Positions 7,371 through 25,505 of a stretch of 64,000 nucleotides of DNA are shown one piece after another. How positions within the stretch are numbered: the first letter of the stretch is position 1; every line of letters begins with the position of its first letter. Source of the DNA: Candidatus Moraniibacteriota bacterium (GTDB taxonomy: Bacteria; Patescibacteriota; Minisyncoccia; Moranbacterales; UBA11712); contig JAQVJV010000001.1 in the NCBI GenBank assembly GCA_028695025.1, positions 21,201 through 85,200 on the forward strand. Reading direction: 5' to 3'. Made by a program: the position numbers and the translations under genes. Below the pieces are notes generated by a model that was given only the letters and a program-made list of their open reading frames with translations, was not told the DNA's origin and ran no database searches.

Positions 7371-10261
7371 TGCCCATAAAACGAAAAAACATCCTGCCCC
7401 AGATGTTCGACGTAAAACCCGTAAACAAAAAGGGTGTTTTGGATTTGGAAAGGATCAAAAAAGGAAACAGGGTGATTATCATTCGAAAAGAAAAGCCAAT
7501 CCAAAGGATGGCGCCAAAGATCAAGCCTATCCGGAAACCAGAAACGGCAAAAACCAGCTTGAATTTCATCCGGCCATACCAATGCCCCGCAATTTTGCCC
7601 AGACCAAAGCCGATCCAGACAGAAAAAATTCGCATCCAGCCGGCCATAAACACGGAAAAGGCAGAAACAAGGCCCCAAAGCGCTCCCAAAACTTTCACGG
7701 ATGACCGGATTATTTATCACTCCAAGCCTTTCATTTCTGAAGAAGTTCGATTGAGGATCGAAAGAGATTCACTGGAAAAAGAAAATCACCTATTTAAAGC
7801 CGAAAAACATCCGCGAGGAATTGAACATCATCAAGCTTCAAAGCCTTTCGTTTCCGACGATGTCCAATTGAAGATTGAAGAAAGTTCGATAGGAATGGAA
7901 AAAGTTTCCGATTTCGAGGCTCGTCCGGAAAAAGTGAGCCGTTTTTTCGAGCCCTCTTTTGAAAATTATTCCCCGATGTTTTCCCGGGAGGAAATAATCG
8001 AAACACTCCCCGAGATAAAACCGGAAAAACCAAAAACGGAAAAGAAGGAGCTATTCAAAGCCTTTTTTGAGAAAAAAACAGAAAAATTGAGGGAAGAATC
8101 AGAGATAAGAAAGAAAAAGGCCCAAACCAAACCAAAAAAACCCTTCTTCTCCAGGCTGTTTGAAGAGAAAAAACGCAAGAAAAAAATCTCTCGAAAATCC
8201 AGCCTGAATTCTGGTTTTTCAAAACTGAACCGGGAACTTGGAAAAGTCTTTTCCCTGGAAACACAAAGGAAGATTGCACCTGTTCCGAAAATGAGTTATG
8301 GGTTTTCCTTTGCAGTGATCCTTCTTGTGATAAGCCTCACTGTGCCGACTCTTTCATATATCCAGCGCGCCCTGAATATGAAAAATTCCATTGAAATTTC
8401 CGGCCAGGAAGCGCTAGGGCAAATCGCCGAAGCCAAAGACAATCTCACCAACAGCCAATTCGAGAAAGCTGCAGTTGATTTTTCCGAGTCTTATGAGATT
8501 CTTTCCGAAGCCGACAAAAATATCCGGGATATCGGCGGGGGATTCAGCGATGTTTTGCGGTTTGTTCCGGGAATATCACGCCTTGCGAGCGCCCAGCATA
8601 TCGTTTCCGCCGGAGAACATTTTTCCCTTGCCGGAAAATCTTTGTCAGAATCGGCCAAGTCTCTCAATTCGCTTGGGAACCCGCTCGCAGACGATGCTCG
8701 AAATCAGCCCTCGCTCACCGACCTCTTTTTGAATCTTCGCGACGGAGTCGAGAAAGCAAGCAATGACCTTTCCCAAGGAACAGAAGATATAAACAAAGTG
8801 AATATCGACGACTTGCCGGCCGATATGCGCGGAAAATTCACCGACCTGAAATCAAAGCTCCCGCTTGTGAATGCCAGCCTCAAGAATTTTTTGGATTATT
8901 CCCGGATCTTTCTCGATGTTCTCGGATACAACGGCCCGCGGAAGTATCTGTTTCTTTTTGAAAACAACCAGGAAATGCGCGCCACTGGCGGATTCATCGG
9001 AAGCTACGGCATTTTGGACATTTCCAACGGCCGCGTGAAGAAACTCTTCGTGGATGACATATATAATCCCGACGGCCAGCTCAAAGCGCGGGTGATCCCG
9101 CCGCTTCCGATCCAAAAAATGAGCGCCGTCTGGACGATGCACGATGCCAACTGGTTTCCCGATTTTCCCACTTCCGCCGAAAAAGTTTCCTGGTTTTATG
9201 AAAAAACGGGCGGACCGACCGTGGACGGGGTGATCGCCATCACGCCGGAGCTTCTTGAGGATCTTCTCAAAATCACCGGGCCGATCGAAATGGATGAATA
9301 CGGAAAAACCATTGACGCAAATAATTTCATAAAAGAAACCCAGCAGGAAGTTGAAGTGGATTATGACAAGAAGCTGAACCAGCCGAAAAAATTCGTGGCC
9401 GACCTCACTCCCAAGATCTTGGACAAAGTGATGAGCGAAAAAGGAATCACGCAGCTTCTTTCCACTCTTCAGGCTTTCAGTTCCGCCCTTGAGCAGAAAC
9501 ATTTGCTTCTTTATTCCCGAAATTATAATATCCAGAAACTTATTTCCGGCCAAAAATGGTCGGGCGAAATTTTGAACACCGACAAGGATTATTTGAGCGT
9601 TATCAACACGAACATCAATGGGTACAAAACAGACGGAATCGTTGACGAAACTATCGACCATCAAAGTGAAATCCAGGATGACGGAACTGTCGTGGACACG
9701 GTGGCTGTTACCCGGAAACACAATGGCGGAAATGAAAAATATGACTGGTGGAACAAGGTGAATGGGGATTGGATGCGGATCTATGTCCCGGAAGGAGCGA
9801 AACTTCTCGAAGTTTCCGGCCAAACGCGCGAAACCAACCAGCCGGCGCTTGATTATGACACCCTCGGCTTCAAAAAAGATCCCCAAGTCCAAGCCAACGA
9901 AGACTCGGCCGAAATCGACGAAGAGTCCGGAACCAGGATATATAAGGAAAACAACAAAACCGTTTTTGCCAACTGGGTTTATGTGAGTCCCGGCGAGTCG
10001 GTGACAATCAGCTACAAATACGTCCTGCCGTTCAAGTTGGGTTTTGATCCGCTTCACCATCCGGCTGATTCCTTTTCCGTGCTATATCAAAAACAATCGG
10101 GAAGCGTCGGGAGCGAGCTCCATGCCGAAGTCAAGCTTCCGGACAATATGCATTCTATCTGGCGCTGGCCGGACGGGTTGAAACAGGACGGAAATTCGTA
10201 TAAGATGGAGGGTGTTTTGGATACGGACAAATTCGTGGGACTGGCGGTGGAGAAACAATGA
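7370..10261 (+). CDS. DUF4012-family membrane protein with a long Lys-rich N-terminal extension
   Basis: The C-terminal 600 aa or so contain the DUF4012 signature region (FENNQEMRATGGFIGSYGILDISNG). A single TM helix lies at about aa 310-330. The N-terminal 300 aa or so are low-complexity K/P/E-rich with internal repeats. The start overlaps the upstream stop (taATG). Confidence 0.6.
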   Translation: MPIKRKNILPQMFDVKPVNKKGVLDLERIKKGNRVIIIRKEKPIQRMAPKIKPIRKPETAKTSLNFIRPYQCPAILPRPKPIQTEKIRIQPAINTEKAETRPQSAPKTFTDDRIIYHSKPFISEEVRLRIERDSLEKENHLFKAEKHPRGIEHHQASKPFVSDDVQLKIEESSIGMEKVSDFEARPEKVSRFFEPSFENYSPMFSREEIIETLPEIKPEKPKTEKKELFKAFFEKKTEKLREESEIRKKKAQTKPKKPFFSRLFEEKKRKKKISRKSSLNSGFSKLNRELGKVFSLETQRKIAPVPKMSYGFSFAVILLVISLTVPTLSYIQRALNMKNSIEISGQEALGQIAEAKDNLTNSQFEKAAVDFSESYEILSEADKNIRDIGGGFSDVLRFVPGISRLASAQHIVSAGEHFSLAGKSLSESAKSLNSLGNPLADDARNQPSLTDLFLNLRDGVEKASNDLSQGTEDINKVNIDDLPADMRGKFTDLKSKLPLVNASLKNFLDYSRIFLDVLGYNGPRKYLFLFENNQEMRATGGFIGSYGILDISNGRVKKLFVDDIYNPDGQLKARVIPPLPIQKMSAVWTMHDANWFPDFPTSAEKVSWFYEKTGGPTVDGVIAITPELLEDLLKITGPIEMDEYGKTIDANNFIKETQQEVEVDYDKKLNQPKKFVADLTPKILDKVMSEKGITQLLSTLQAFSSALEQKHLLLYSRNYNIQKLISGQKWSGEILNTDKDYLSVINTNINGYKTDGIVDETIDHQSEIQDDGTVVDTVAVTRKHNGGNEKYDWWNKVNGDWMRIYVPEGAKLLEVSGQTRETNQPALDYDTLGFKKDPQVQANEDSAEIDEESGTRIYKENNKTVFANWVYVSPGESVTISYKYVLPFKLGFDPLHHPADSFSVLYQKQSGSVGSELHAEVKLPDNMHSIWRWPDGLKQDGNSYKMEGVLDTDKFVGLAVEKQ
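7721..7888 (+). repeat. Two copies of a ~17-aa peptide repeat (SKPF[IV]S[ED][ED]V[RQ]L[RK]IE...) encoded within the DUF4012 N-terminal extension
   Basis: HSKPFISEEVRLRIERDS and ASKPFVSDDVQLKIEESS lie about 38 aa apart in the translation. Confidence 0.5.
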
Positions 10262-11986: not shown

Positions 11987-13855
11987 ATGGATAATCAACA
12001 AAACATCCGGAATTTTTGCATAATCGCCCATATAGATCATGGGAAGTCGACGCTTGCCGACCGGATGCTTGAACTCACCCAAACCGTCGAACAGCGCAAG
12101 ATGAAGGAGCAACTGCTCGACACGATGGATCTCGAGCGGGAAAGGGGAATCACGATCAAGTTGCAGCCGGTGAGGATGCAATATAAAGTTCAAAGTAGAG
12201 ACAGTGATGATTCGCAATATTTAAATAGTAAAATGAGCGAAGCGAACACCAACACTTTTCACTTTTCACTTTTCACTTTAAACTTAATTGATACTCCCGG
12301 CCATGTTGATTTCGGCTATGAAGTTTCCCGATCCCTCGCCGCCGTTGAAGGCGCGGTTTTGCTTGTGGATGCGACCAAAGGCGTGCAAGCCCAAACCGTG
12401 GCCAACCTCTATCAAGCCATCGAGCAGGGATTGGAAATCATTCCCGTGGTGAACAAAATCGACCTTCCGAACGCCGAAGTGGAAAAAACCAAAAGCGAAA
12501 TCATCCACCTTTTGGGCTGCCGGGAGGATGAAATTTTGGAAGCAAGCGGAAAAACCGGCGAGGGGGTGGAAAATATCCTGGACGCAATCGTTGAAAAAGT
12601 GCCGGCGCCGTCAGGAGAACTTCAAAAACCTCTTCGCGCCCTCATTTTTGATTCGAAATATGATACCTACAAAGGCGTTTTGGCTTACGTGCGGATCATT
12701 GACGGTGAAGTGAAAGCCGAGCACAAAATCACGGCCATGGCCACCAAACAGGATAGTTCAGTGATCGAAGTGGGCCATTTCACGCCGGAACTCGTCAAAT
12801 CGGGCAAGTTATTGGCTGGGGATATCGGCTATATCGCGACCGGCTTCAAATCGGTGAGCGATTGTCGGGTTGGGGACACGATCACTCTCACAAACGCCAT
12901 CGAAAAAACCGAACGGCTTCCGGGATACAGGGAAATAAAACCCGTTGTCTATGCCAGTTTCTATCCCAAAGAAGGGGATGATTACAACTTCATGCGCGAC
13001 GCCTTGGGAAAACTCAAGCTGAACGACGCCGCATTTGATTTCGAGCCGGAAAGCAACCAGGCGCTTGGCCGCGGGTTCCGCTCGGGGTTCTTGGGGCTTC
13101 TTCATATGGAGATTATCCAGGAAAGGCTCAAGCGCGAATTTGAAATCGATCCGGTGATCACCACGCCGAGCGTAGTTTATGAAGTTCAGGTCAAAGGCCA
13201 GAAGTCAAAGGTCAAAGTTTTCTCACCGCTCGAAATGCCCGACCCGTCCGTGACTGAAAGCATCGAAGAGCCTTATGTCAAACTGGATATTATTTCCCCG
13301 GCGCAATACCTCGGAAATATCATGGATCTCATGAACAATACCCGTGCGGAGTATAAAAATACGGAATATATCGACAGCGAACGGCTGATTCTTTCTTTCA
13401 ATGCTCCACTCACCGATGTCATCATCGACCTGCATGACAAATTGAAAAGCGTTTCGAGCGGATACGCTTCGATGAACTATGAAATCACCGGATACCGTCC
13501 CAACAAGCTGGTGAAGCTTGATATTCTCGTGGCCAATGACCGCGTGGACGCTTTTTCCCGGATTGTGCCGGAAGACCGGGCTTTCTCCGAAGGAAAAGCC
13601 ACCGTGGAAAAATTGAAGGACGTGATTCCGCGCCAAAACTTCCAAGTCGCCCTCCAGGCCGCTGTCGGAGGAAAAATTCTTGCCCGCGAAACCGTGAGGG
13701 CCTTCCGAAAAGATGTGACAGCCAAACTATACGGCGGCGATGTCACCCGCAAAAGAAAATTGCTTGAAAAACAGAAAAAGGGGAAGAAAAAGATGACCCA
13801 AGTCGGCCGGGTGGAAATTCCCAGCACCGCTTTTTTGGCCGTTTTGCGGAAATAG
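11987..13855 (+). CDS. lepA: Elongation factor 4 (LepA), with a ~25-aa lineage-specific insertion in the G domain
   Basis: G1 motif (IIAHIDHGKSTLADR), G3 motif (DTPGHVDF), and the LepA-specific C-terminal domain. The insertion lies between the conserved YKV and LNLIDTPGH segments. Confidence 0.9.
   Translation: MDNQQNIRNFCIIAHIDHGKSTLADRMLELTQTVEQRKMKEQLLDTMDLERERGITIKLQPVRMQYKVQSRDSDDSQYLNSKMSEANTNTFHFSLFTLNLIDTPGHVDFGYEVSRSLAAVEGAVLLVDATKGVQAQTVANLYQAIEQGLEIIPVVNKIDLPNAEVEKTKSEIIHLLGCREDEILEASGKTGEGVENILDAIVEKVPAPSGELQKPLRALIFDSKYDTYKGVLAYVRIIDGEVKAEHKITAMATKQDSSVIEVGHFTPELVKSGKLLAGDIGYIATGFKSVSDCRVGDTITLTNAIEKTERLPGYREIKPVVYASFYPKEGDDYNFMRDALGKLKLNDAAFDFEPESNQALGRGFRSGFLGLLHMEIIQERLKREFEIDPVITTPSVVYEVQVKGQKSKVKVFSPLEMPDPSVTESIEEPYVKLDIISPAQYLGNIMDLMNNTRAEYKNTEYIDSERLILSFNAPLTDVIIDLHDKLKSVSSGYASMNYEITGYRPNKLVKLDILVANDRVDAFSRIVPEDRAFSEGKATVEKLKDVIPRQNFQVALQAAVGGKILARETVRAFRKDVTAKLYGGDVTRKRKLLEKQKKGKKKMTQVGRVEIPSTAFLAVLRK
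12253..12280 (+). repeat. Heptanucleotide tandem repeat (cactttt)x3 plus cacttta inside the lepA CDS
   Basis: Direct read of cacttttcacttttcacttttcacttta. It encodes the FHFSLFT part of the LepA insertion. Confidence 0.7.
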
Positions 13856-13871
13856 GGTATAATATCTACAA

Positions 13872-13979
13872 ATGAAGCATAGACATAAGAAAAAAATCCG
13901 GATCATCTGGCTCATCATCACCATTATCGCCGTTCTCTCGATGGTGGCTTTCACGATCGCCCCCATGATGAGTTTCTAA
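13872..13979 (+). CDS. Small hydrophobic peptide (35 aa); speculative
   Basis: ATG...TAA ORF MKHRHKKKIRIIWLIITIIAVLSMVAFTIAPMMSF: a basic N-terminus followed by one TM helix, lying in the lepA-ftsB spacer. Confidence 0.2.
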   Translation: MKHRHKKKIRIIWLIITIIAVLSMVAFTIAPMMSF

Positions 13980-14000
13980 AAATTTGGAAAGCATCGGCCT

Positions 14001-14429
14001 GTGAAAAATAAATCGGAAGAAAAAACAAACACCGCTGCCAAAATTTTTTCCGGAATATTCTTTCTGGCCGGTTTCGTCATCCTTGCTTTGATTGGCGTAT
14101 CTTTAGGAAAAAAAATCTATCGCAAAAATCAAACCCAAAAGGAAATCGAAAAACTTCAGGCTCAAATCCAAGAACTGAAGCAGGATAACGATAACATGGA
14201 CGGGCTTATCAGCTATCTCTCTTCGACTGACTTCCAAGAGAAAGAGGCTCGCGAGAAATTAAGCCTGCAAAAAAACGACGAAAAAATGATCGTTCTGCAA
14301 AAAGATGCCGTCCAGCCGGAAAAATCCGAATCAGATTCAGATCAGAATAAAAATCAATTGGCCACTGAACCAAATAACACTCCCAACTGGCAAAAATGGC
14401 TGAATTTCTTTTTTGAAAATAAGAGCTAA
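14001..14429 (+). CDS. FtsB/DivIC-like septum formation initiator (GTG start)
   Basis: An N-terminal TM helix is followed by a coiled coil (EIEKLQAQIQELKQDNDNMDGLISYLSS..EKEAREKL), which is the characteristic FtsB/DivIC architecture. Confidence 0.5.
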   Translation: MKNKSEEKTNTAAKIFSGIFFLAGFVILALIGVSLGKKIYRKNQTQKEIEKLQAQIQELKQDNDNMDGLISYLSSTDFQEKEAREKLSLQKNDEKMIVLQKDAVQPEKSESDSDQNKNQLATEPNNTPNWQKWLNFFFENKS

Positions 14430-14432
14430 AAC

Positions 14433-15491
14433 ATGACCGACCGCAAAAAACACAAAAAAAAGCAAGCGGTGAAAATTTGGCTGATTGCCGGAGCCTCGGC
14501 ATTGGCCATTTTTGCCGTTCTTGCTTCCGTGATCCTTGGCGTTTATGAGTTCAACTGGAGCAACCGTTTTTTTGTCTCCGCCACAAAAAACATCCCTTTT
14601 CCGGCGCTATATATCCGCGGAGCCGGTTTCGTTTCGGTGAATGAAGTGAAATCCGACCTCCAGTCCGTGAAAAAATTCTATGAATCCCAGGACTTCGCAA
14701 AACTCGGCATGCGGATTGATTTCAACACCGACCAGGGCCAAAAACGGCTCAAAGTGAAAGAAAAAGAAATAATCAGCAAGCTGGTTGAAAACAAGGTGGT
14801 GGAAGCCCTGGCCGAGAAACAGGGAATTGCAATCAGCAACAGCGATGTAAACGCGGAATTGGAAAAAAATATCGCCCAATTCGGAAACAAGGACAACTTG
14901 ATGAGCGACCTTGCGCGATTATACGGCTGGACAATCGACGATTTTTCCGAAAAAGTGGTGAAGCCGGAAATGTACGCGGCGAAACTTTCTGAAAATTACG
15001 CCGGAAGCCTTGATACCGGCGCCGAGCAGGAAAAGGCGCAGGATTTATACAAGCAGGCAACAGCCAAAAACGCCGACTTTGCAACTATCGCCAAAGAAAA
15101 TTCCGACGGACAAAGCGGGGAAGACGGCGGCGATTTGGGATGGTCGACCCAAGATCAATTGATCGGGCCGGTGGGAGAGAAAGCGTTTTCCATGAAAGTC
15201 GGGGAAATCAGCGATCCGGTGGAGAGCGAGCTTGGTTTCCATATCTTGAAACTTACGGAGAAGAAAACCGACAACGGCGTGGAGATTGTCCATTTGAGCC
15301 AAATTTTTGTGAAAAAGCCGACTTTTTCCGACTGGCTTTCCGGCCAGATGAAAAACTATCCGGTGACGGTCTTTGTGAAAGAATATCAATGGAATTCCGG
15401 GGACGCCAAAATCGGATTCCGCGATTCGGAAATGCAAAAATTTGAAAAAAATCTCCCGGCCAACTCGGAAGGGGATCCATCGGTGTTTTAG
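14433..15491 (+). CDS. Parvulin-type peptidyl-prolyl cis-trans isomerase (PrsA/SurA-like), membrane-anchored
   Basis: An N-terminal TM helix is followed by a PpiC-type domain (GGDLGWSTQDQLIGPVGEKAFSMKVGEISDPVESELGFHILKLTEKK). Confidence 0.7.
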   Translation: MTDRKKHKKKQAVKIWLIAGASALAIFAVLASVILGVYEFNWSNRFFVSATKNIPFPALYIRGAGFVSVNEVKSDLQSVKKFYESQDFAKLGMRIDFNTDQGQKRLKVKEKEIISKLVENKVVEALAEKQGIAISNSDVNAELEKNIAQFGNKDNLMSDLARLYGWTIDDFSEKVVKPEMYAAKLSENYAGSLDTGAEQEKAQDLYKQATAKNADFATIAKENSDGQSGEDGGDLGWSTQDQLIGPVGEKAFSMKVGEISDPVESELGFHILKLTEKKTDNGVEIVHLSQIFVKKPTFSDWLSGQMKNYPVTVFVKEYQWNSGDAKIGFRDSEMQKFEKNLPANSEGDPSVF

Positions 15492-15513
15492 GAGTTTAAA
15501 ATACGTTGAAACC

Positions 15514-15543
15514 AAAAACTTCGCATTCTTGCGAAGTTTTTTT
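15514..15543. terminator. Bidirectional hairpin terminator between the PPIase gene (+) and tRNA-Thr (-)
   Basis: aaaaacttcgca-ttct-tgcgaagttttt forms a perfect 12-bp stem flanked by A and T runs. Confidence 0.6.
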
Positions 15544-15618
15544 GGAGCCGATGGCCGGGATCGAACCGGCGACCTACGCGTTACGAGTGCGTCGCTCTGC
15601 CAACTGAGCTACATCGGC
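15543..15618 (-). tRNA. tRNA-Thr (anticodon CGT), with encoded CCA
   Basis: The reverse complement folds as a cloverleaf: GCCGATG acceptor, TAGCTCAGTTGGCAGAGC D-arm, anticodon loop CTCGTAA, T-arm GCCGGTTCGATCCCGGC, and 3' CATCGGC-T-CCA. Confidence 0.8.
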
Positions 15619-15626
15619 GTGATTTT

Positions 15627-15700
15627 TGGAGCGGGATACGAGAATCGAACTCGCGTTTCTTGCTTGGGAAGCAAATGTACTGCCACTGTACTAATCCCGC
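15627..15700 (-). tRNA. tRNA-Gly (anticodon CCC), with encoded CCA
   Basis: The reverse complement has a GCGGGAT acceptor, anticodon stem-loop TTTGC-TTCCCAA-GCAAG, T-arm GCGAGTTCGATTCTCGT, and ATCCCGC-T-CCA. Confidence 0.8.
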
Positions 15701-15712
15701 AATTACTGCCAA

Positions 15713-15741
15713 ATACTAGCAAATTTTTCCGCTTCTGGCAA
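15713..15741 (-). promoter_or_regulatory. Putative sigma70-like promoter for the tRNA-Gly/tRNA-Thr pair (TTGCCA-17-TAGTAT on the minus strand)
   Basis: On the minus strand, TTGCCA (plus coordinates 15736-15741) and TAGTAT (15713-15718) are separated by a 17-nt spacer. The tRNA-Gly 5' end lies about 13 nt downstream. Confidence 0.3.
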
Positions 15742-15755
15742 CTGAAATTGTTTTG

Positions 15756-15764
15756 TGCTATAAT
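15756..15764 (+). promoter_or_regulatory. Extended -10 element (TGcTATAAT) directly upstream of prfB
   Basis: TGCTATAAT at 15756-15764 ends 8 nt before the prfB ATG at 15773. This implies a leaderless or near-leaderless transcript. Confidence 0.4.
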
Positions 15765-15772
15765 TTTTCCGT

Positions 15773-16868
15773 ATGCAGGAACTTCTGGAAAAACTGAAAG
15801 AGCTTCGCCAGCGAGTCGCTTCCGTAAGCGACTGTCTTTGACTTCCCAAAAAAGAAAAAGCGCATTGAAGAGCTGGAAAAAGAATCGAACACGGAAAATT
15901 TTTGGCAAAATCCCGACGAAGCGCAAAAAGTGATGCAAGAATTGGAAGGCCTGCGCGAAGACATCAAGACTTTGGGTGAAATGGAAACAAGCCTGGACGA
16001 TCTTTCGGAAATGGCAAATCTTGCCGCGGACGATTCCGAAATAAAAAAAGAAATCGAAAAACAGATCGGTTCGATCGGAAAAAATCTTGAAAAGATCGAG
16101 TTCGAAACCCTTTTCCGGGGAGAATACGACCGGAGCAACGCGATCCTTTCGATCCACAGCGGAACCGGGGGGGTGGACGCGCAGGATTGGGCGGAGATGC
16201 TCCTTCGGATGTATCTGCGGTTCGCCGAAAGAAAAAATTGGAAAGCCAAAGTCCTTTCCGAATCTCGCGGCCAGGAAGCCGGAATCAAAAGCGCAACGCT
16301 TGAAATTTCCGGAAAGATGGCCTACGGATATCTCAAAACGGAAGCCGGACTCCATCGCCTCGTGAGGCTCTCGCCCTTCAACGCCAAAAATCTCCGCCAG
16401 ACCTCATTTGCTTCAGTTGAAGTTTTGCCGGAAATTGATAAGATAGAATCAGTGGAAATCAATCCGGCCGACCTCAAGATTGATACCTTTCGTGCTTCAG
16501 GAGCCGGTGGTCAGCACGTGAACAAGACCGACAGCGCAGTGCGCATCACCCATTTGCCGACCAACCTTGTCGCCAGTTCTCAGAACGAGCGCAGCCAGCT
16601 CCAAAACAAAGAACAGGCCCTGAAAATTCTCACCGCAAAAATCCACCAGAGATATTTGGCCGAAAAAGAAGAACAAGAAAAAAAGCTGAAAGGCGAACAT
16701 GTTGAAGTTCAGTGGGGAAGCCAAATCCGGTCATATGTCCTTCATCCGTACAAGCTCGTGAAAGACCACCGCACAAAATTCGAATCCAAAAATCCGGAAG
16801 AAGTGCTGGACGGGAATATCGAAGGATTCATAGAAACATACCTCACCGGTCAAAATTCGCAAAAATAA
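15773..16868 (+). CDS. prfB: Peptide chain release factor 2, with a programmed +1 ribosomal frameshift at CTT-TGA-C (15836-15842)
   Basis: Frame 0 (MQELLEKLKELRQRVASVSDCL) ends at the in-frame TGA at 15839-15841 in the canonical CTT TGA C context. The +1 frame continues as DFPKKKKRIEELEKE...QELEG into the 15930..16868 ORF. That ORF carries the RF2 GGQ motif (SGAGGQHVNKTDSAVRITHLPT). Confidence 0.9.
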
Positions 16869-16880
16869 AAACACATACGC

Positions 16881-17567
16881 ATGATAGAATTTCGAAACGT
16901 CAAAAAAATATATTCCGCCGGCATAAACACCATTGCTCTTGATGATGTCAATTTTGTCATCGAAAAAGAGGAATTTGTTTCATTGGTCGGCCATAGCGGA
17001 GCCGGAAAATCAACGCTCCTCAAGCTTCTTTATGCGGAAGAAAAACCGACCTCGGGACAGATTTTTTTCAACGGCGAGGACATCACTCAACTCACCCCAA
17101 AGGAACTTCCTTTGCACCGCCGCCGGATCGGAACAATTTTTCAGGACTTCAAATTGCTTCCCCGAAAAACCCTTTTTGAAAATGTGGCTTTTGCCCTCGA
17201 AGTATCCGACCACTCTGACGCGGAAATTCAGGAGCTGGTTCCGCAAATTCTCGAGATCGTCGGCCTCGCGCACAAGATGGAATGCTATCCTCGGGAAATT
17301 TCCGGAGGAGAACAGCAGCGCGTGGCTATCGCTCGCGCCTTGGTCCACCGGCCGCCGCTCATCATCGCCGATGAGCCGACAGGGAACCTTGATCCGATCA
17401 GCAGCTGGGGAATCATCCAGCTTCTGCTCAAAATCAACAAGCTCGGAACAACGATTTTGCTCGCCACGCACAACAAAGACATCGTCAACCGCGTCAAACG
17501 CCGCGTCATCACCCTTGACCAGGGAAAAATCATTCGGGACCATAGCAAGGGAAGGTACGCGATATAA
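16881..17567 (+). CDS. ftsE: Cell division ATP-binding protein FtsE (ABC ATPase)
   Basis: Walker A (GHSGAGKST), ABC signature ([15 protein letters not shown]), and Walker B ([12 protein letters not shown]) are present. The gene sits in the conserved position upstream of ftsX. Confidence 0.85.
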
Positions 17568-17571
17568 TATT

Positions 17572-18483
17572 ATGTTACTAATCACCCTCAAGCGCACATT
17601 TCTTTCCGGATTCCAGCATTTCAAAAGAAACGGCTGGCTGAGTTTTGCCGTCACAAGCATCCTCTCACTCACCCTCCTCATCATCAGCACCCTGATCGTC
17701 CTTTCTCTCGCCGCCAACTTGGTGATCCGAAACGTCCAGGACAAGGTGGATATCAGCGTATATTTCAAAAGCGACACACCCGAGTCGAAAATTCTTGACT
17801 TCCGCTCGACTGTCCTTCAATACAAAGAAGTGAAGTCGTCCGAATATGTCTCCAAGAACCAGGCCTTCGACGATTTCAAGGAAAAAAATGCGGACAATCC
17901 CGTCATCCTGCAATCGCTCGACGCCATCGGCGACAACCCGTTGAACGCCTCGGTGAATATCAAAGCCATCACTCCGGACAAATACGACATCATTGCCACC
18001 GCCATCCAAAATTCCGCCTTCAAAGACGACATCATCCGCATCAACTACGCCAAAAACAAGCTTGTCATCGAACGGTTGAACAATATCCTTTCCATGACCC
18101 GCCGGGTGGGAATCACCTTGGCCGCGTTGTTCTCGCTCATCGCGATCCTCATCACTTTCAACGCCGTCCGCATCACCATATACGCCCATCGCCAGGAAAT
18201 CGAAATTATGCGGCTCGTCGGCGCATCCGACCGCTATATCCGCCTGCCTTTCATTTTCGAGGGAATCACCTACGGCGCGATTTCGGCCATATTCGTCATG
18301 TTTCTTCTTTTCCCGCTCATCCGCTTTGCCGTCCCGCATATCACCGGCGCGGTTTCCGTGAAGGACGTGCAATCCGATTTCATCCACTATTTCTGGCTGA
18401 TTTTCCTGGTCCAGCTTTTGGTCGGCGTAGGCTTGGGAATTGTGAGTAGTTTGATCGCCATCCGGAGATATTTGAAAATCTAA
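17572..18483 (+). CDS. ftsX: Cell division permease-like protein FtsX
   Basis: It starts MLLITLKRTFLSGFQHFKRNGWLS and has the FtsX topology: an N-terminal TM helix, a periplasmic domain, and three C-terminal TM helices. The ORF-track entry 16933..18483 is an artefactual upstream extension overlapping ftsE. Confidence 0.8.
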   Translation: MLLITLKRTFLSGFQHFKRNGWLSFAVTSILSLTLLIISTLIVLSLAANLVIRNVQDKVDISVYFKSDTPESKILDFRSTVLQYKEVKSSEYVSKNQAFDDFKEKNADNPVILQSLDAIGDNPLNASVNIKAITPDKYDIIATAIQNSAFKDDIIRINYAKNKLVIERLNNILSMTRRVGITLAALFSLIAILITFNAVRITIYAHRQEIEIMRLVGASDRYIRLPFIFEGITYGAISAIFVMFLLFPLIRFAVPHITGAVSVKDVQSDFIHYFWLIFLVQLLVGVGLGIVSSLIAIRRYLKI

Positions 18484-18486
18484 AAA

Positions 18487-18524
18487 TTTCCCCCATCATA
18501 AAGGGAAGCTAAGGGAAGATTTTG
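18487..18524. repeat. GC-rich palindromic repeat element, copy A (intergenic)
   Basis: tttcccccatcataaagggaagctaagggaagatttt is about 85% identical to the element at 30322-30361 inside a CDS. Confidence 0.45.
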
Positions 18525-18548
18525 AAAAGCCGGCAATCGGCTTTTTTG
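18524..18548 (+). terminator. Intrinsic terminator after ftsX
   Basis: aaaagccg-gcaat-cggctttttt: a GC stem followed by a T6 run. Confidence 0.6.
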
Positions 18549-18590
18549 CTTGATATTTTTGGAAAAATAATATAGAATTCATCGTGTTAT

Positions 18591-18661
18591 TGGGGTGTAG
18601 CCAAGCGGTAAGGCAATGGGTTCTGGTCCCATGATCCTAGGTTCGAATCCTAGCACCCCAG
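18591..18661 (+). tRNA. tRNA-Gln (anticodon CTG), without encoded CCA
   Basis: TGGGGTG acceptor (U1-A72 as in bacterial tRNA-Gln), anticodon stem-loop ATGGG-TTCTGGT-CCCAT, T-arm CTAGGTTCGAATCCTAG, and 3' CACCCCA-G. Confidence 0.8.
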
Positions 18662-19372
18662 ATGATAAAATTATTCAAAAATTATCCAGAAATAATTGCA
18701 GTTATGTCCGATAGAAAAGATGGTTCTATGCGGCTTTTTGTCGATGGCGTTTTGGATAAAAAATATGAGACAAACCGAACAAGTTTTTTTAAGGAAATCG
18801 GGATTGATTATAATAATGTTATCAGTGCCCACCTTGAGCATAAAACGGGCATAAAAAATATCAGGAATAATAAGAAAAAAATTATTCCCAAAACCGATGC
18901 CCTTGTTTCCAAGGAAAAGAATATATTTCTTTCCGTTACTTCAGCCGACTGCATTCCAATTTTATTCTATGAGCCAACAGTTAAGATAGTTGGAATCGCT
19001 CATGCTGGCTGGAGAGGCATTGTTAAAAAAATAGCCAATAAAACAATTGAAAAAATTATTGATCTTGGCGGAGATCCAAAAAATATTCGGGTGGCAATGG
19101 GCCCCGGGATAAACAAATGTCATTTCGACATCGGAAATCGTATCAGTAAACAATTCCTTCCATATTCAAAGCTGATCGACAAGAGAGGAGATAAATATTT
19201 CGTCGAATTAAAAGAAATAATCAATGAACAATTAATTGAATCCGGAATAGACAAAAGGAATATTGAAAATACGAGAGAATGTACATTTTGCAAATCAAAA
19301 AAATATTTTTCTTATCGAAAGGAAAAAGATCCAAATGTTGGACTAATGATTAGCTTAATTGGTATCAGATAG
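18662..19372 (+). CDS. YfiH/PgeF (DUF152, Cu-oxidase_4 / laccase-domain) family protein
   Basis: It has the family-specific HAGWRG motif (IVGIAHAGWRGIVKK), a conserved region (SADCIPILFYEP), and the N-terminal region IIAVMSDRKDGSM. The ORF begins 1 nt after the tRNA-Gln 3' end. This segment is markedly AT-rich. Confidence 0.65.
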   Translation: MIKLFKNYPEIIAVMSDRKDGSMRLFVDGVLDKKYETNRTSFFKEIGIDYNNVISAHLEHKTGIKNIRNNKKKIIPKTDALVSKEKNIFLSVTSADCIPILFYEPTVKIVGIAHAGWRGIVKKIANKTIEKIIDLGGDPKNIRVAMGPGINKCHFDIGNRISKQFLPYSKLIDKRGDKYFVELKEIINEQLIESGIDKRNIENTRECTFCKSKKYFSYRKEKDPNVGLMISLIGIR

Positions 19373-19457
19373 GATAATTTAGGAAATATGTTCGAACATC
19401 GTCCCACAATCGCAGCGGTGAAAATAATTTTGATAGCTAATTCCTACAAATAAAACA

Positions 19458-19646
19458 ATGGATATAAGTGCTCCGTTTTCAATATTATTAGGATTACTGG
19501 CTGTTGTTTTTATAATTATAGGCATAAGAGAAGTGATTATGTGGTATTGGAAAATAAACAGAATCGTAAAACTCCTGGAAAATATTGAAGAGAATACATC
19601 TAAACTTCTCCGAAAAAATAAGGATAAAAATTCTGATATTGAATAG
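19458..19646 (+). CDS. Small membrane protein (62 aa), hypothetical
   Basis: A single TM helix (FSILLGLLAVVFIIIGI) is followed by a charged tail. It is co-oriented with its neighbours in an AT-rich segment. Confidence 0.3.
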   Translation: MDISAPFSILLGLLAVVFIIIGIREVIMWYWKINRIVKLLENIEENTSKLLRKNKDKNSDIE

Positions 19647-19664
19647 ATCTTACCAAAATAATTT

Positions 19665-20057
19665 TTGAATAAACACATGAACAACCTCCCCGCGTTTTTT
19701 GCCGCTAATCCCTGGGTACTTGCCCTTATCGCGCTTTGGACCATCCCCTGGAAGGGCGTGGCGCTTTGGAAAGCGGCGAGAAACGAGCATACCGGCTGGT
19801 TTGTGGCCATCCTCATCCTCAACACTCTCGGAATCCTGGAGATAATCTACATTTTCTTTTTCTCCCGAAAGAGAGGAGCTATGGCAAATGTTCCATCCAG
19901 CGCGCCGATGAACATGCCGACAAATATTCCCGCCACTCCGCCAGCTGAAGCCCCAGTCGAAAAACCGATGGAAATGAAAAACCCCGAAGAAAGCGCGAAT
20001 ATTGAGGGAATAGCCGCGCCAACCGAAAAAATTGACGAGCCGCCGATTTCGCGCTAG
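19665..20057 (+). CDS. Small membrane protein, DUF5652-like (hypothetical)
   Basis: It has two TM helices with the PWKGVALWKAARN...WFVAILILNTLGILEIIYIFFF pattern I associate with DUF5652, then a Pro/Ala/Glu-rich tail. Confidence 0.35.
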   Translation: MNKHMNNLPAFFAANPWVLALIALWTIPWKGVALWKAARNEHTGWFVAILILNTLGILEIIYIFFFSRKRGAMANVPSSAPMNMPTNIPATPPAEAPVEKPMEMKNPEESANIEGIAAPTEKIDEPPISR

Positions 20058-20109
20058 AATTTATTTCCGGAGAGATGTTTTGATAATCATTTAACTAAAA
20101 TCCAAAAAT

Positions 20110-20382
20110 ATGTCCGAAACAAATATCCAGCCTCTTGGCGAAAATGTCCTCATCGAGCCTGTGAAGCAGGATACCAAAACCGCTTCCGGGATTGTTCTTC
20201 CCGACACAAGCGAAGAAAAACCGCAAGAGGGAACCGTGATTGCCGTCGGCGACAGCGACAAAATCAAGGTGAAGGCCGGCCAGAAAGTGATCTATTCCAA
20301 ATATTCCGGAAACGACATCAAAGTCGGGGACAAGGAGTATCTCCTGGTGAAAAGCGAGGATATCCTGGCGGTGGTGAAGTAA
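20110..20382 (+). CDS. groES: Co-chaperonin GroES
   Basis: 90 aa with the characteristic NIQPLGENVLIEPVKQDTKTASGIVLPDT...GTVIAVG...DIKVGDKEYLL pattern. No groEL follows it; the next gene is convergent. Confidence 0.9.
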   Translation: MSETNIQPLGENVLIEPVKQDTKTASGIVLPDTSEEKPQEGTVIAVGDSDKIKVKAGQKVIYSKYSGNDIKVGDKEYLLVKSEDILAVVK

Positions 20383-20441
20383 ATATATATTAATATATAT
20401 AAATGAAAAAGCAGGACATAATCCTGTTTTTTCATATTTCA

Positions 20442-21257
20442 CTATTCCGTTTTTCCACCTGCCGTTTTCCAATCAGCGAATGTCCCGTCAAGTTGGTATA
20501 TGTTGAAAAAATTGAGATCGAACAATTTCACCGCCGCCTGGAAAGAATCGACCGCGTCCGCGCCATAAACAACCACTTTCTGGACTGACGGAATTTTTTC
20601 TTTCTCGCTTTCAAGGTCGGAAAGGGGAATGTTTATCGCTCCGGCGATATGGCTGGCTTGGAACTTGCTTGCGCTTCGCACATCCACGAATTGCAAGGAA
20701 TCAGCCTCATTTTGTGCGTCCGCGAGGCTCATTTTTTTCACTTTCGCGTCATCCGTTTCCGCTTTTCCGGAAGAAACAAGGGGATAGCCATTCTCCATCC
20801 AATCGGCGATTCCGCCGCGGAGATATTGCGTATTCACAAAGCCTTCGGCCACCACCGCATTCGTTGCCTTTGCAAGTATTGCTAAATTGTCTCCCTGATT
20901 TATTAAAAATATATTTGACGTTTTTTCCGCGCCCAGCTCTTCAAAAAACTTGCGGTTCAGCCCGTCAGCGGAAACATTCACCGCGGTCGCGATATGCCCT
21001 TGATCAAAATCATCCGCGGGACTGATATCGATCAAAAAAACTTTTTTCTTGTCCTGGATCATTTGGAAAACATCATCCGCCATGACGGAAGGCGCTTTGA
21101 GAATTTCCGCGTTGTCGGACTGGCCTTTGCTTTCGCCGCCAAAAACCTTGTCTTTCCACCGCAAAACCGCCGGCTTGAGAAAATAGGCGGCGATGACCGC
21201 AACAATCAGCAAAAAGCCGATGAAAAACACTTTTGACTGGTCTTTTTCTTTTGTCAT
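20442..21257 (-). CDS. Membrane-anchored tandem rhodanese-like domain protein (predicted catalytically inactive)
   Basis: An N-terminal TM helix is followed by two rhodanese-fold domains (FLIDISPADDFDQGHIATAVNV... and QFVDVRSASKFQASHIAGAINIP...). The whole protein contains no cysteine, so the active-site Cys is absent from both domains. Confidence 0.65.
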   Translation of the reverse strand: MTKEKDQSKVFFIGFLLIVAVIAAYFLKPAVLRWKDKVFGGESKGQSDNAEILKAPSVMADDVFQMIQDKKKVFLIDISPADDFDQGHIATAVNVSADGLNRKFFEELGAEKTSNIFLINQGDNLAILAKATNAVVAEGFVNTQYLRGGIADWMENGYPLVSSGKAETDDAKVKKMSLADAQNEADSLQFVDVRSASKFQASHIAGAINIPLSDLESEKEKIPSVQKVVVYGADAVDSFQAAVKLFDLNFFNIYQLDGTFADWKTAGGKTE

Positions 21258-21260
21258 TTT

Positions 21261-22217
21261 TTACGCTAATATTTTTCCGATGAAATCCGGACGGCCTTTC
21301 AGAAAATCATCCGCCATCATTTCTTTTTTTCCTTCGAGTTGGATTTTTTTGAGGATTATCAAGCCATTTTCAGCCTGAACGGCAATTTTTTCCCTGTATT
21401 TAATCACCTCGCCGACAGTTTGAGCGGCATTCGTTCCCGGAATTATATTGATTTCAACCAATTTCATCCTTTTTGTGTTATTCTTATCGGGAAAAAAAGT
21501 GAATATTCCCGGCCAGGGCTGGAAAGCGCGCCACTTGTTGTATATTTTTTCCGCCGGCTCGCTCCAATCGATTTTTCCGTCTTCGCGACGGATGATTTGG
21601 CAGTAGGAAGCTTTGGCGCCATCTTGCGGCACGGCGCTGATTCCGCCGGCGACCCATTTTTCAATTGCCGGTCCGACCATAGCCGCGCCCATTTCAGCCA
21701 ACCGTTCCATCAACTGATCGGCTGTTTCATCGGATCTTATTTTCATCTTTTCCTGCGCCAGGATATCCCCCTCGTCCATTTTTTCGTCCATAAGGATCAG
21801 CGTGACTCCCGTTTCTTTTTCACTAGCGAGGATTGCCGCCGGAACCGGAGTGGGGCCGCGAAATTTGGGAAGAAGGGACGGATGGACATTGATCGCGCCG
21901 AATTTCGGAATTTCGAGGAGGCCTTTCGGCAATATTTTTCCATAGGCCGCGACCACAAACAGGCCGGGATCCAGCTTTTTTAATTCATCAACGACTTTTT
22001 CATCTTTCAAATTTTCCGGCTGAAAAATTTTTATTCTGTTTTCAAGGGCCGTTTTTTTGGCCGGAGAATATTCGATTTCTTGTTTTCTCCCGATTTTTTT
22101 GTCGGGCTGCGCCACAACCGCGACGACATCAAAATTGTTTTCAATCAGCGAACCGAGCACTGTCGCGCCGATCTCCGGCGTGCCGAAAAAAATGATTTTC
22201 GTGTTTTTATTTTTCAT
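21261..22217 (-). CDS. fmt: Methionyl-tRNA formyltransferase
   Basis: IIFFGTPEIGATVLGSLIENNFDVVAVVAQPDKKIGRKQ, the SLLPKFRG motif (HPSLLPKFRGPTPV), and the C-terminal Fmt domain. It overlaps def by 11 nt. Confidence 0.9.
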   Translation of the reverse strand: MKNKNTKIIFFGTPEIGATVLGSLIENNFDVVAVVAQPDKKIGRKQEIEYSPAKKTALENRIKIFQPENLKDEKVVDELKKLDPGLFVVAAYGKILPKGLLEIPKFGAINVHPSLLPKFRGPTPVPAAILASEKETGVTLILMDEKMDEGDILAQEKMKIRSDETADQLMERLAEMGAAMVGPAIEKWVAGGISAVPQDGAKASYCQIIRREDGKIDWSEPAEKIYNKWRAFQPWPGIFTFFPDKNNTKRMKLVEINIIPGTNAAQTVGEVIKYREKIAVQAENGLIILKKIQLEGKKEMMADDFLKGRPDFIGKILA

Positions 22218-22677
22218 TTCCTTTCATTGCCCGGTCGATCACCAAAATCCCGTCGAGGTGGTCGATTTCATGCTGAAGGACCCGGGCCAAAAAGCCGTCC
22301 GCTTTGATTTTCTGTTTTTCCCCCTCAAGGTTCAGCGTTTGCACTTTCACTTTGATCGGGCGTTCAACTTGAAAAAATTGGTTGGGAAAACTCAAGCATC
22401 CTTCTTCAAAAATATCTTTTTTTCGGGAATATGATTTTATTTCCGGATTGATAAGCACAAAAACCTCGCCTTCGACCGCCACTGTGCAGAGACGGAGATC
22501 CGACCCGACTTGCGGCGCGGCAAGGCCCACCCCTTTTTCCTCTTCCATGGCTTTCACCATATCCAAAACAAGCCGCTTGAATTTCGGATTTTTTATTTCT
22601 TCCTTCCTGACTTTTCGCGTTTTGCGGCGCAAAAAATCGTCCGGATATTTGACTATTTTCAACTTCTTGTTCTTCAT
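22207..22677 (-). CDS. def: Peptide deformylase
   Basis: GVGLAAPQVG, EGCLSFP and QHEIDHLDG motifs are present. The start is set at MKNKKLKIV (22675-22677); the ORF-track N-terminal extension to 22785 is rejected. Confidence 0.85.
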   Translation of the reverse strand: MKNKKLKIVKYPDDFLRRKTRKVRKEEIKNPKFKRLVLDMVKAMEEEKGVGLAAPQVGSDLRLCTVAVEGEVFVLINPEIKSYSRKKDIFEEGCLSFPNQFFQVERPIKVKVQTLNLEGEKQKIKADGFLARVLQHEIDHLDGILVIDRAMKGNEK

Positions 22678-22682
22678 ATTTT

Positions 22683-24614
22683 TCAAAAAAGCGTCACCGG
22701 ATCGACATCCACGCTCCAGCCTTTCCGCAATCCGCCCAAAACGGACCGGATGGGCAAATCGCGGATATTTTTTCCCGGATCGCATTTCAAAAGCAAATTT
22801 TTCTGGAAAAAACCTCTTTTTTGCCCGGAAAAAGGCTCATACGGAGCAAAAACGTCAACCTTATTATTACTAGTTGCCATCAATAAGTCAAATGTTTTTT
22901 TCATTTCCTTTTCGATATTTTTCTTTGATTTGTCCCGAAAAGCAACTTTCACCAACCTCGAAAAAGGGGGGAAGCCGTATCTCTTGCGGATAGCCAGCTC
23001 GTTTTTGTAGTATTTTTCTTTTTCATTTTTTTCAAAGTATTCAAGCGTCCGGCTTTTTTCGAAAAAAGACTGGAGAAAAACCGTACCTTTCCCGCCAAGA
23101 ATACTCTCCATCCGGGAAAGCCGCGCAAGGGAGAGGCTCCGCGATTCAAACTCGATTCCGTCCGCGAAATCCCGGCCGGAAATTGAAGCGGCAAGAGCCG
23201 TATTTTCCGAAAACAGCCCCTTCAAGACCGACTGCGTGCCAACCAGGATATCAACTTTTCCAACCGCGAAATTTTCCAGTATCTTCCTTGTTTTGGCAAC
23301 GCTTCGGAGAGTGTCCGCGTCCAAGCGAACCGTGCCGGCGCAGGAGAACAGTTTTTTTATTTTTCGCTCCACGGTTTGTGTTCCGATGCCGCGATGGGAA
23401 AACTGCAAACCGCCGCAAGCCGGACAGGCCGTGAAAAGGTCGGCTTTATACGCGCAATGGAGACATCGATATTGCCCCTCGGCCTCCGAAAAAACAAGGG
23501 CTCGGTTGCATTTCGGACACTTGAGAACTTTTTTGCAGTTTTCACAAATGGAACGGGTGGAAAAACCTCTCCGGTTCACGAAAACGACCGCCTGTTTTTT
23601 TTCTTTGATGGTTTTTGCCAATTGGCTGAAAAGTTCCGGAGAAATCGGAAAGTCCGGATTTTTCTTTTTTCCCCCGAGACTCACAATTTCGATTTTGGGC
23701 CGCCTGATTTCGGCCGTTTCCGGCTTGATATGTTCCAGATCTTTTCCCGCGCGGACGCGGATTTCCGCCGAAGGCCAGCCGCTCTCAAAAACAATCTTCG
23801 CTCCGGACAGGTCGGAAAGCGTTTCAGCGCACCAGACCGCCGAATAGCGCGGCATTGCCTCACTCTGCTTGAAAGACGGATCCTGCTCTTCCAAAACAAT
23901 GACGGTTCCAAGATTTTCAAAAGGCAGGAATACGCCCATTTTTGTCGCAATGATTATTTTTGTTTCGCCGGAATGGATTTTTTGCCAATATTCGCCGTAT
24001 TTTTTCTTGGTGATCTTTCCGTGGATCAAGGCTATTTCTTCGCCAAAACAATCTTTCCATTTTTGAAAAAGACTTTCGGCGAAAAACACTTCGGGAACAA
24101 GAATGAGGATTTGTTTTCCCCCGGAAAGGCATTTCAAAATCAAGGCCTTATTCACATCTTCCGCGTCCTGCGTCGGCGCTTCCAATAAAAATTTCTGTTT
24201 TTTGTTCGAGATTATTTTTTGGGCTATGCTGTTTTTTGTTTGAAGTATCTTTATTTTGCGATTATTGTTCGCTGTTCGCTGTTCACTGTTCGCTGTTTTT
24301 GCTGCCATCAGCTTTAAAACCGAACCCAAAGGAGCAAAATACCGCTCGGCAATTTTCCGGGCCAGTTCGATTTGATACGGCTTTATGGCGCCGGATTCAA
24401 CCACGCTTCTTATTTTTTTCAGTTTGAAATTTTTTGGAAATTCACCCGATTGCCTTGTTTCAATGACCACCCCCTCAATTTCCCGAAAATAGAAAGGGAT
24501 CTTCACAAGCGTCCCCGCCGGAAGTTCTTTTCCATGCCAATATGAAAAAACCTGTGTCCGAAGCACCGGCAGGGGAACAAGAGGAGCAACTTGGATGATA
24601 TGTTTTGATTTCAT
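22683..24614 (-). CDS. priA: Primosomal protein N' (PriA) homolog with degenerate ATPase motifs
   Basis: It has a 3'-DNA-binding-like N-terminus and the PriA Cys-rich zinc region (CENCKKVLKCPKCNRALVF...CLHCAYKADLFTACPACGG). Helicase domain conservation includes LSGGKQILILVPEV. At the Walker A position it reads EAPTQDAEDV instead of GxxGSGKT. At the Walker B position it reads VLEEQD instead of DE(E)H. Confidence 0.75.
   Translation of the reverse strand: MKSKHIIQVAPLVPLPVLRTQVFSYWHGKELPAGTLVKIPFYFREIEGVVIETRQSGEFPKNFKLKKIRSVVESGAIKPYQIELARKIAERYFAPLGSVLKLMAAKTANSEQRTANNNRKIKILQTKNSIAQKIISNKKQKFLLEAPTQDAEDVNKALILKCLSGGKQILILVPEVFFAESLFQKWKDCFGEEIALIHGKITKKKYGEYWQKIHSGETKIIIATKMGVFLPFENLGTVIVLEEQDPSFKQSEAMPRYSAVWCAETLSDLSGAKIVFESGWPSAEIRVRAGKDLEHIKPETAEIRRPKIEIVSLGGKKKNPDFPISPELFSQLAKTIKEKKQAVVFVNRRGFSTRSICENCKKVLKCPKCNRALVFSEAEGQYRCLHCAYKADLFTACPACGGLQFSHRGIGTQTVERKIKKLFSCAGTVRLDADTLRSVAKTRKILENFAVGKVDILVGTQSVLKGLFSENTALAASISGRDFADGIEFESRSLSLARLSRMESILGGKGTVFLQSFFEKSRTLEYFEKNEKEKYYKNELAIRKRYGFPPFSRLVKVAFRDKSKKNIEKEMKKTFDLLMATSNNKVDVFAPYEPFSGQKRGFFQKNLLLKCDPGKNIRDLPIRSVLGGLRKGWSVDVDPVTLF
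24266..24300 (-). repeat. Heptanucleotide tandem repeat (tgttcgc x4, one variant) inside the priA CDS
   Basis: Direct read: tgttcgctgttcgctgttcactgttcgctgttttt. On the coding strand, (gcgaaca)n encodes ...TANSEQRTANN... Confidence 0.7.
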
Positions 24615-24642
24615 TGGGAATTTAGAATTGTAAATTCAAAAT

Positions 24643-25440: not shown

Positions 25441-25505
25441 GGATTGATTTTATCACTTTAATCTGATAGGATTTTATCATAATTAACCACTTTTTAAAAA
25501 TAAAT

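Follow-up and report, generated by a model that had tools for sequence, protein, structure and literature searches.

The stretch of DNA analysed here (the window) comprises 64,000 nt from Candidatus Moranbacteria, a member of the candidate phyla radiation (CPR, Patescibacteria), and coordinates are positions in the window unless another locus is named. It contains three tandem arrays of heptanucleotide units, each lying inside a protein-coding gene: lepA, encoding elongation factor 4 (EF4), priA, encoding primosomal protein N', and a gene for a glycosyltransferase of the GT4 type. A first-pass annotation had reported arrays in these three genes, and they are indeed present as claimed, in open reading frames (ORFs) that are intact. 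The genes, and the arrays as delimited by Tandem Repeats Finder (TRF), are as follows.

11987-13855, + strand: lepA (elongation factor 4), 622 aa, intact ORF; homologues are named EF4/LepA
12253-12279, + strand: array (CACTTTT)x3.9 in lepA, perfect (100% match); read as NTFHFSLFTL, residues 89-98
22683-24614, - strand: priA (primosomal protein N'), 643 aa, intact ORF; named from homologues
24266-24297, - strand: array TGTTCGC x4.6 (GCGAACA on the coding strand) in priA, 92% match; read as TANSEQRTAN
38048-39205, + strand: GT4-type glycosyltransferase gene, 385 aa, intact ORF; homologues are named family 1 glycosyltransferase
38147-38176, + strand: array (TTCAAAA)x4.3 in the glycosyltransferase gene, perfect; read as FKIQNSKFKI

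The 100% matches to the three ORFs come from a 116-kb contig of a metagenome-assembled genome of Candidatus Moranbacteria. The lepA product gave a 100% match to a Candidatus Moranbacteria EF4 and matched the LepA structure 2YWE in the PDB with E=2.7e-203, and the homologues of the glycosyltransferase (GT4 below) carry the Pfam domains PF13439 and PF00534, which together denote a GT4-type fold. The LepA, PriA and GT4 proteins are each a singleton in their own 90% cluster. The single mismatch in the priA array lies in its third unit, which reads TGTTCAC; the unit and the start of this array had been given correctly by the first-pass annotation, whereas its end had been set at 24300, 3 nt beyond the real end at 24297. 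Over positions 16409-25928 the window is matched at 100% identity by the Logan assembly of SRR22315504, which contains the same priA array with the same copy number.

Because a unit of seven is not a multiple of three, successive units are read in all three frames, and each of the three arrays is translated into a peptide with a period of seven residues (HFSLFTF, ANSEQRT and FKIQNSK). It had been supposed that any change in copy number would shift the reading frame of the gene; this does not hold for a change of three units (21 nt), which keeps the frame. The units were also considered as slippery heptamers for programmed -1 frameshifting and, by inspection, do not fit the pattern X XXY YYZ.

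Positions of the arrays in the host proteins

The lepA array lies in a β-hairpin of the G domain, where it forms the C-terminal part of the following insertion.

12188-12277, + strand: LepA G-domain β-hairpin insertion, residues ~68-97, between QPVRMQYK and LNLIDTPGH

The insertion amounts to 22 aa relative to Aquifex LepA (2YWE) and to 27 aa when the minimal CPR loop is the reference. The gap of 22 aa against 2YWE confirms that, as had been proposed, the array belongs to a G-domain insertion missing from canonical LepA. The hairpin segment as a whole has 53 aa in the window, compared with a minimal 26-30 aa in most CPR LepA proteins, and the loop is hypervariable across Moranbacteria, with 0 to ~53 extra residues. 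In one locus (L007) the hairpin insert is exactly +21 nt and consists of three AAATTTC units, the smallest expansion that keeps the frame. In the AlphaFold model of the window LepA, residues 71-92 have a predicted local distance difference test score (pLDDT) below 50 and stand between strands 62-68 and 94-102, and the final codons of the array (SLFT) are modelled as the start of strand β3. In the reverse complement of the lepA unit, AAAAGTG, one frame in three contains TGA, so that this array can be coding in its present orientation only.

In the closest LepA relatives of the window, the hairpin contains a palindromic in-frame element, AAAGTCCGGCTTT - 30 nt - AAAGCCGGACTTT, at positions 10203-10270 of L086 and 10218-10275 of L094 and L095, with a DNA fold z-score of -4.0. 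It is apparently from the 3' arm of this element (..GGACTTTT) that the CACTTTT array of the window grew. When the palindrome was sought elsewhere in the collected loci it was found only in the LepA loops themselves, and the lepA insert of the window has no stronger fold than shuffled sequences (z = -1.7). The sequence GCGAAGCGAACA immediately precedes the lepA array, and a relation between it and the priA unit GCGAACA was considered and dropped, GCGAACA occurring five more times in the window, as expected by chance. Separately, a LepA homologue of 752 aa (P0032) has an insertion of ~160 aa in the same hairpin, containing PF13366 (PDDEXK_3), which amounts to a whole domain nested in the G-domain loop.

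A second, degenerate array occurs further along lepA.

13188-13217, + strand: period-7 array AGGTCAA/AGGCCAG/AAGTCAA/AGGTCAA in lepA, 4.3 copies with 73% match (TRF); encodes QVKGQKSKVKV

This array is length-neutral, in that the LepA structures in the PDB show no gap at this position, and it is possibly a decayed array.

PriA structures in the PDB align to residues 11-100 (the 3'BD domain) and 153-640 (the helicase core) of the window protein, and the priA array falls within the variable, Lys/Arg-rich linker between the two, which is not alignable to the solved structures. As a side observation, PriA in CPR bacteria is short (~643 aa), and it is residues 101-152 that are without alignment to these structures. 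The aligned stretch that includes the linker has 50 aa in the window, as in most orthologues, and there is thus no net change of length; comparison of the sequences indicates, on this ground, that the array replaced existing sequence rather than adding to it.

In GT4 the array is part of a loop, longer by 10 aa, that connects helix 16-30 to strand 47-52 in the N-terminal domain (AlphaFold model, mean pLDDT 93.9). Another GT4 protein, P0242, is 72% identical and has an identical insert peptide.

Arrays at orthologous sites

At the GT4 site, the (TTCAAAA)x4.3 of the window is matched in two other Moranbacteria (L083 and L084) by a perfect (AATTTCC)x4.3; the site is the same and each array has 30 nt, while the unit is different. 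The GT4 proteins of L083 and L084 are 78% identical and 27% of their conserved codons differ, yet their arrays are identical (P about 0.006). Related arrays also occur at this site in L002 and L085, each of them broken by a GC-rich hairpin.

A comparable situation is found in a loop of LepA domain II (VGDTxT...LPGY), whose length, in the window as in close relatives, is 20 aa whether it holds an array or none; the loop of the window is without one. An identical (AATTTCA)x4.7 is present in L001 and L094, although they agree in only 49% of the conserved codons (P about 1e-4). In L086 the array is (AATCTCA)x4.7 instead, with a T to C change at one and the same position of each of the five units; three of these five changes are synonymous, and two residues are altered. 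In L095 the array is mixed, with a peptide that is nearly that of L086. Many orthologues are entirely without arrays.

Identical arrays in otherwise diverged genes, together with changes that run through every unit, could not be produced by independent point mutation, and the sequences imply homogenisation of the units, which would have proceeded by repeated slipped-strand misalignment or by conversion within the array. A change throughout an array strikes all three codon positions, so that few such changes would be fully silent, and by this reasoning the unit should change slowly without any selection on the DNA itself.

GC-rich hairpins of 21-64 nt with a CCTGCC..GGCAGG core were seen inside arrays of GT4 (L002, ~10150-10215; L085, ~870-900) and of LepA (L087, ~300-340). 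They are translated in frame, for example as LAYRQAG or LPRWQAG, and occur in intergenic DNA too in other CPR loci; further instances are in L011, L015 and L016. The hairpin may be a small element of the repetitive extragenic palindromic (REP) or miniature inverted-repeat transposable element (MITE) kind that favours arrays or permissive loops. One such GC-rich hairpin, GGCAGGCAGG, was sought in the window and is no feature of it (two one-mismatch matches, against 1.8 expected), and CTTGCCTGCCCGCC at 27107-27128, an intergenic GC-rich sequence that resembles the end of the L002 hairpin, is present at chance frequency.

Period-7 arrays in the window and in related genomes

In the window, 16 perfect repeats of period 7 have at least two copies, compared with about 5-7 in Markov simulations of order 1, 3 or 5, in which no runs as long as the observed arrays are expected. 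There is no such excess for periods 8-12: period 8 gives three repeats, against about two simulated, and periods 9-12 give none. We then have the abundance of arrays in related genomes to consider, for which TRF was run on the LepA loci of GTDB species genomes and on orthologue contigs, a strong array being one with a score of at least 40 and at least three copies. Period 7 accounts for 13 of the 17 strong arrays in Moranbacteria (307 kb) and for nine of the 25 in other CPR bacteria (404 kb), compared with none of the 19 in non-CPR bacteria (530 kb), and counts of perfect runs agree with this census.

The CPR background of period-7 arrays, taken from loci that were picked independently of arrays, is ~21 per Mb, or ~1.4 per 64 kb, and the window has four at the same TRF threshold, giving P = 0.05 for four or more and P = 0.16 for three or more. 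The view that recurrence in three genes is not expected by chance stands when the comparison is with random sequence, as in the Markov simulations; against the CPR background the three genes are not special, period-7 arrays being general in Moranbacteria and other CPR bacteria. Non-coding DNA of the examined loci has similar arrays too, as do many unrelated sites. Their length is 27-33 nt, or ~4-4.7 units, in coding and non-coding DNA alike; copy numbers cluster at 3.6-5.6, although the detection thresholds cut the lower end of this range and the sample is small.

Which units can be carried in a gene is restricted. Stop codons are absent from all three frames of a given strand in only 31-42% of AT-rich heptamers, and the heptamers without them consist mostly of an A-run, a T-run and C. 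Of the stop-free coding units checked, six of eight have TGA on the opposite strand, so that for these six only the observed orientation can be coding. In the LepA array of a member of the Doudnabacteria (GGAATTA), the single copy that would place TAG in frame reads CAG. The stop-free filter and the AT bias together can explain why units of the AAATTTC/AAAATTC type recur across sites and genomes.

As a baseline from viral DNA, exact (AAATTTC)x4 occurs in only five, and (TTCAAAA)x4 in only 27, stretches among 2.9 million viral contigs. Contigs of IMG/VR with (TTCAAAA)x4 (L104, L105, L107, L118 and L127) often have more heptamer arrays with other units, up to five in 6.8 kb; these array-rich contigs are either viruses with the same repeat signature or misclassified cellular DNA.

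The window has further arrays that, like the one at 13188-13217, are weaker than the main three and, again like it, coding.

60583-60611 and 60659-60679, - strand: two period-7 arrays in the N-terminus of the ORF at 59358-60698 (- strand); (TTTTTAT)x4.1 reads FFIFIFVFF and (AAAAGTC)x3 reads KKSKVES
63902-63925, - strand: period-7 array near the N-terminus of the ORF at 62914-63984 (- strand), TTTTTAG x3.6 on the + strand, CTAAAAA-like in the coding direction; reads KISNLKTKNKK

The peptide FFIFIFVFF is likely to belong to a transmembrane helix. The arrays starting at 12253, 24266, 38147, 60583, 60659 and 63902 all lie inside ORFs.

With regard to the gene neighbourhood, the same families recur around lepA in Moranbacteria contigs (the window, L001, L086, L088, L094 and L095), namely DUF4012, MurJ, lepA, DivIC, rotamase, RF-1 and FtsE/FtsX, and in L086 and the window's own genome (L088) the run extends to GroES, rhodanese, Fmt, Def and PriA (11987-25928 in the window).

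Origin of the arrays and comparison with known repeats

The three arrays are probably heptanucleotide microsatellites, local cases of a period-7-specific process at work throughout Moranbacteria and, to a lesser extent, in other CPR bacteria. A shared process behind the arrays had been suggested, and this is borne out. On this reading, a local 7-nt seed would be copied in tandem until the array has about four or five units (27-33 nt), with slipped-strand misalignment or misaligned repair as the likeliest route; the ribosome would read the units in three frames, giving a peptide with a 7-residue period, and selection would retain those arrays that are in frame, stop-free on the coding strand and at tolerant positions of the protein, here the G-domain β-hairpin of LepA, the inter-domain linker of PriA and the N-terminal helix-strand loop of GT4. 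Once established, an array would stay at its site across species while its units were homogenised by slippage or intra-array conversion, resulting in concerted evolution. It seems likely, then, that the arrays act as mutationally active DNA feeding the evolution of loops in conserved proteins, and not as programmed on/off switches.

Several points weigh against this reading. The generating mechanism is inferred and not observed, and classical slippage explains poorly the first step, from a single seed to an array. It offers no reason why period 7 alone should be affected, or why the arrays, those in non-coding DNA included, should appear to cluster near four units, and it does not account for ~30 nt being overwritten without a change of length in the PriA linker, the LepA domain-II loop and lepA 13188-13217; for these length-neutral arrays, slippage with a compensating deletion under selection for length is possible. 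In addition, several of the census loci were chosen for their protein inserts, and the unbiased GTDB loci give 12 arrays in 559 kb of CPR DNA against none in 530 kb of non-CPR DNA, the non-CPR controls being more GC-rich (56% compared with 39-43%).

A common insertion process is rather unlikely as the source of the arrays. Blocks of ~30 nt would have been inserted, or the arrays would be traces left by a small mobile element, or its targets, the nested GC-rich hairpins being an example, in the manner of the selfish in-frame palindromic elements of Rickettsia. Such a process would suit the uniform array length of 27-33 nt in coding and non-coding DNA, the CCTGCC..GGCAGG hairpins that lie inside the arrays of L002, L085 and L087 and also between genes, and the palindromic element that the closest relatives have in their LepA hairpin. 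However, the units of the three window arrays are unrelated, and the arrays have neither hairpin nor terminal repeats, the lepA insert giving z = -1.7, and the GCGAACA beside the lepA array is at chance frequency. The recurrence of AAATTTC/AAAATTC-type units at different sites and in different genomes would likewise fit insertion, but units made of A- or T-runs plus C are expected from the AT bias and the stop-free filter. The priA and LepA domain-II arrays are length-neutral, and the mixed array of L095 looks like turnover in situ. For priA, where the linker is as long as in the orthologues, an origin by insertion, which had been one of the suggestions, is contradicted.

We consider it unlikely that CPR bacteria have a distinct reiterative patch process, possibly templated or conversion-like, in which a local 7-nt seed would be written four to five times over ~30 nt of existing DNA, the length in many cases staying as it was, and the copies kept identical. 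If true, it would account for the length-neutral arrays of the PriA linker and LepA domain II and for the apparent mode near four units in coding and non-coding DNA, and would also cover the four-unit heptamer repeats of Xanthomonas and cyanobacteria independently of G-quadruplex formation.

The earlier suggestion of a mechanism of slipped-strand or phase-variation type holds only in part: slippage or conversion over evolutionary time is supported by the concerted orthologous arrays, whereas adaptive switching is not. The arrays would, as contingency loci, serve to switch lepA, priA and the GT4 gene by gain and loss of 7-nt units, in the way that neuO of Escherichia coli K1 is switched. The unit is not a multiple of three and lies inside three ORFs, a coding heptanucleotide switch has been proven in neuO (PMC13001214), concerted evolution testifies to past slippage, and glycosyltransferases are a typical class of phase-variable gene. 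Nevertheless, we regard such switching as improbable. The tracts, at 3.9-4.6 units, are short compared with those of neuO (3-53 units, 20 being the commonest), and only GT4 fits the usual gene class, lepA and priA being housekeeping genes. All the arrays in the window and in the LepA and GT4 orthologues are in frame, with no OFF alleles, although most of these loci were retrieved through intact proteins. Similar arrays are present in non-coding DNA and at many unrelated sites, and the independent Logan assembly has the identical priA array with the same copy number. Among metagenome contigs, a gap-pattern scan meant to find GT4 alleles of other copy number returned only five identical, unrelated marine sequences.

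A functional element acting in cis, with selection at the level of DNA or RNA for a protein-binding site, a DNA structure or a translational pause between folding units, appears just as improbable. Conservation of the arrays exceeds that of synonymous sites nearby (P about 1e-4 and 0.006), the arrays lie at domain boundaries or in loops, and regulatory roles have been proposed for the TAACTGA and GGGNATC heptamer repeats (PMC4679880 and PMC4692102). Nonetheless, the units differ between sites and switch between orthologues, leaving no single recognition sequence, and many orthologues have no array; in homogenised arrays, moreover, few unit-wide changes are silent, and slow change is expected without selection on the DNA. 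Finally, chance or an assembly artefact, for which nothing speaks beyond the short length of the arrays, is improbable in the extreme, since Markov simulations yield no such runs, the Logan assembly is identical across the priA array and orthologous arrays are present in independent metagenome-assembled genomes from NCBI, ENA and JGI.

An excess of heptamers has been known since 2007 in bacteria and since 1990 in cyanobacteria, with no mechanism established, and the present arrays extend the phenomenon to the small-genome CPR bacteria; in the literature that was searchable, which was incomplete, we found no relevant report of heptamers or microsatellites in CPR bacteria or Patescibacteria. The orthologous arrays in the slowly evolving LepA and in GT4 offer natural clocks for the birth, homogenisation and decay of arrays, and the arrays are a source of rapid loop diversification in highly conserved CPR proteins. 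For annotation, it should be borne in mind that CPR peptides such as KFQISNF, FKIQNSK and NFQFPIS are translated microsatellites.

An over-representation of heptameric simple sequence repeats has been recorded for many bacteria (Mrazek et al. 2007, cited by Rehm et al. 2015, PMC4692102). Among them are the heptamers of Xanthomonas and Nostoc (GGGNATC), in which four units are preferred, a preference put down to G-quadruplexes (PMC4692102), and the TAACTGA repeats of Beggiatoaceae (PMC4679880). The window arrays resemble these in having tandem 7-nt units, a lineage-wide excess specific to period 7 and a modest size. The known repeats, and the short tandemly repeated repetitive (STRR) sequences of cyanobacteria, lie for the most part between genes, are rarer than expected on the coding strand and are built on one dominant unit per genome (G-rich or TAACTGA), whereas the window arrays have diverse AT-rich or mixed units and lie mostly within genes, highly conserved ones included. 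As the units are not G-rich, an apparent preference for about four of them cannot here be attributed to G-quadruplexes. The hosts differ as well, longer-unit repeats (5-11 nt) having been described mainly in large genomes and the present host being a small-genome CPR bacterium.

The nearest coding example is neuO, carried by the CUS-3 prophage of E. coli K1, whose AAGACTC repeat lies in the 5' coding region and leaves the gene ON at copy numbers that are multiples of three and at no others; 66% of its alleles are OFF (PMC13001214). Both systems have a coding 7-nt unit, a 7-residue peptide repeat read in three frames, a frame that is kept at every third copy and, as the driver, slippage, which is probable for the window arrays. 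They differ in that neuO has frequent OFF alleles, measurable switching and a repeat at the 5' end, while we find ~4 units, only ON alleles and a position in internal loops, in two cases in housekeeping genes.

In Rickettsia, palindromic mobile elements of 100-150 bp that belong to one sequence family are said, from work of Ogata and colleagues in 2000, to reside within genes, and they share with the window arrays the in-frame tolerance of short repeated DNA at surface positions of conserved proteins. The arrays are unlike them in being tandem repeats of 27-32 nt with unrelated units and no palindrome, although an in-frame palindromic element is present in the LepA hairpin of L086, L094 and L095. 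In Plasmodium falciparum and other AT-rich genomes, conserved proteins carry low-complexity insertions that are mostly codon-based, with a period of three; these are derived from slippage, as the arrays described here probably are, and are likewise hydrophilic, fast-evolving and located in loops of conserved proteins, but they are not period-7 arrays read in three frames.

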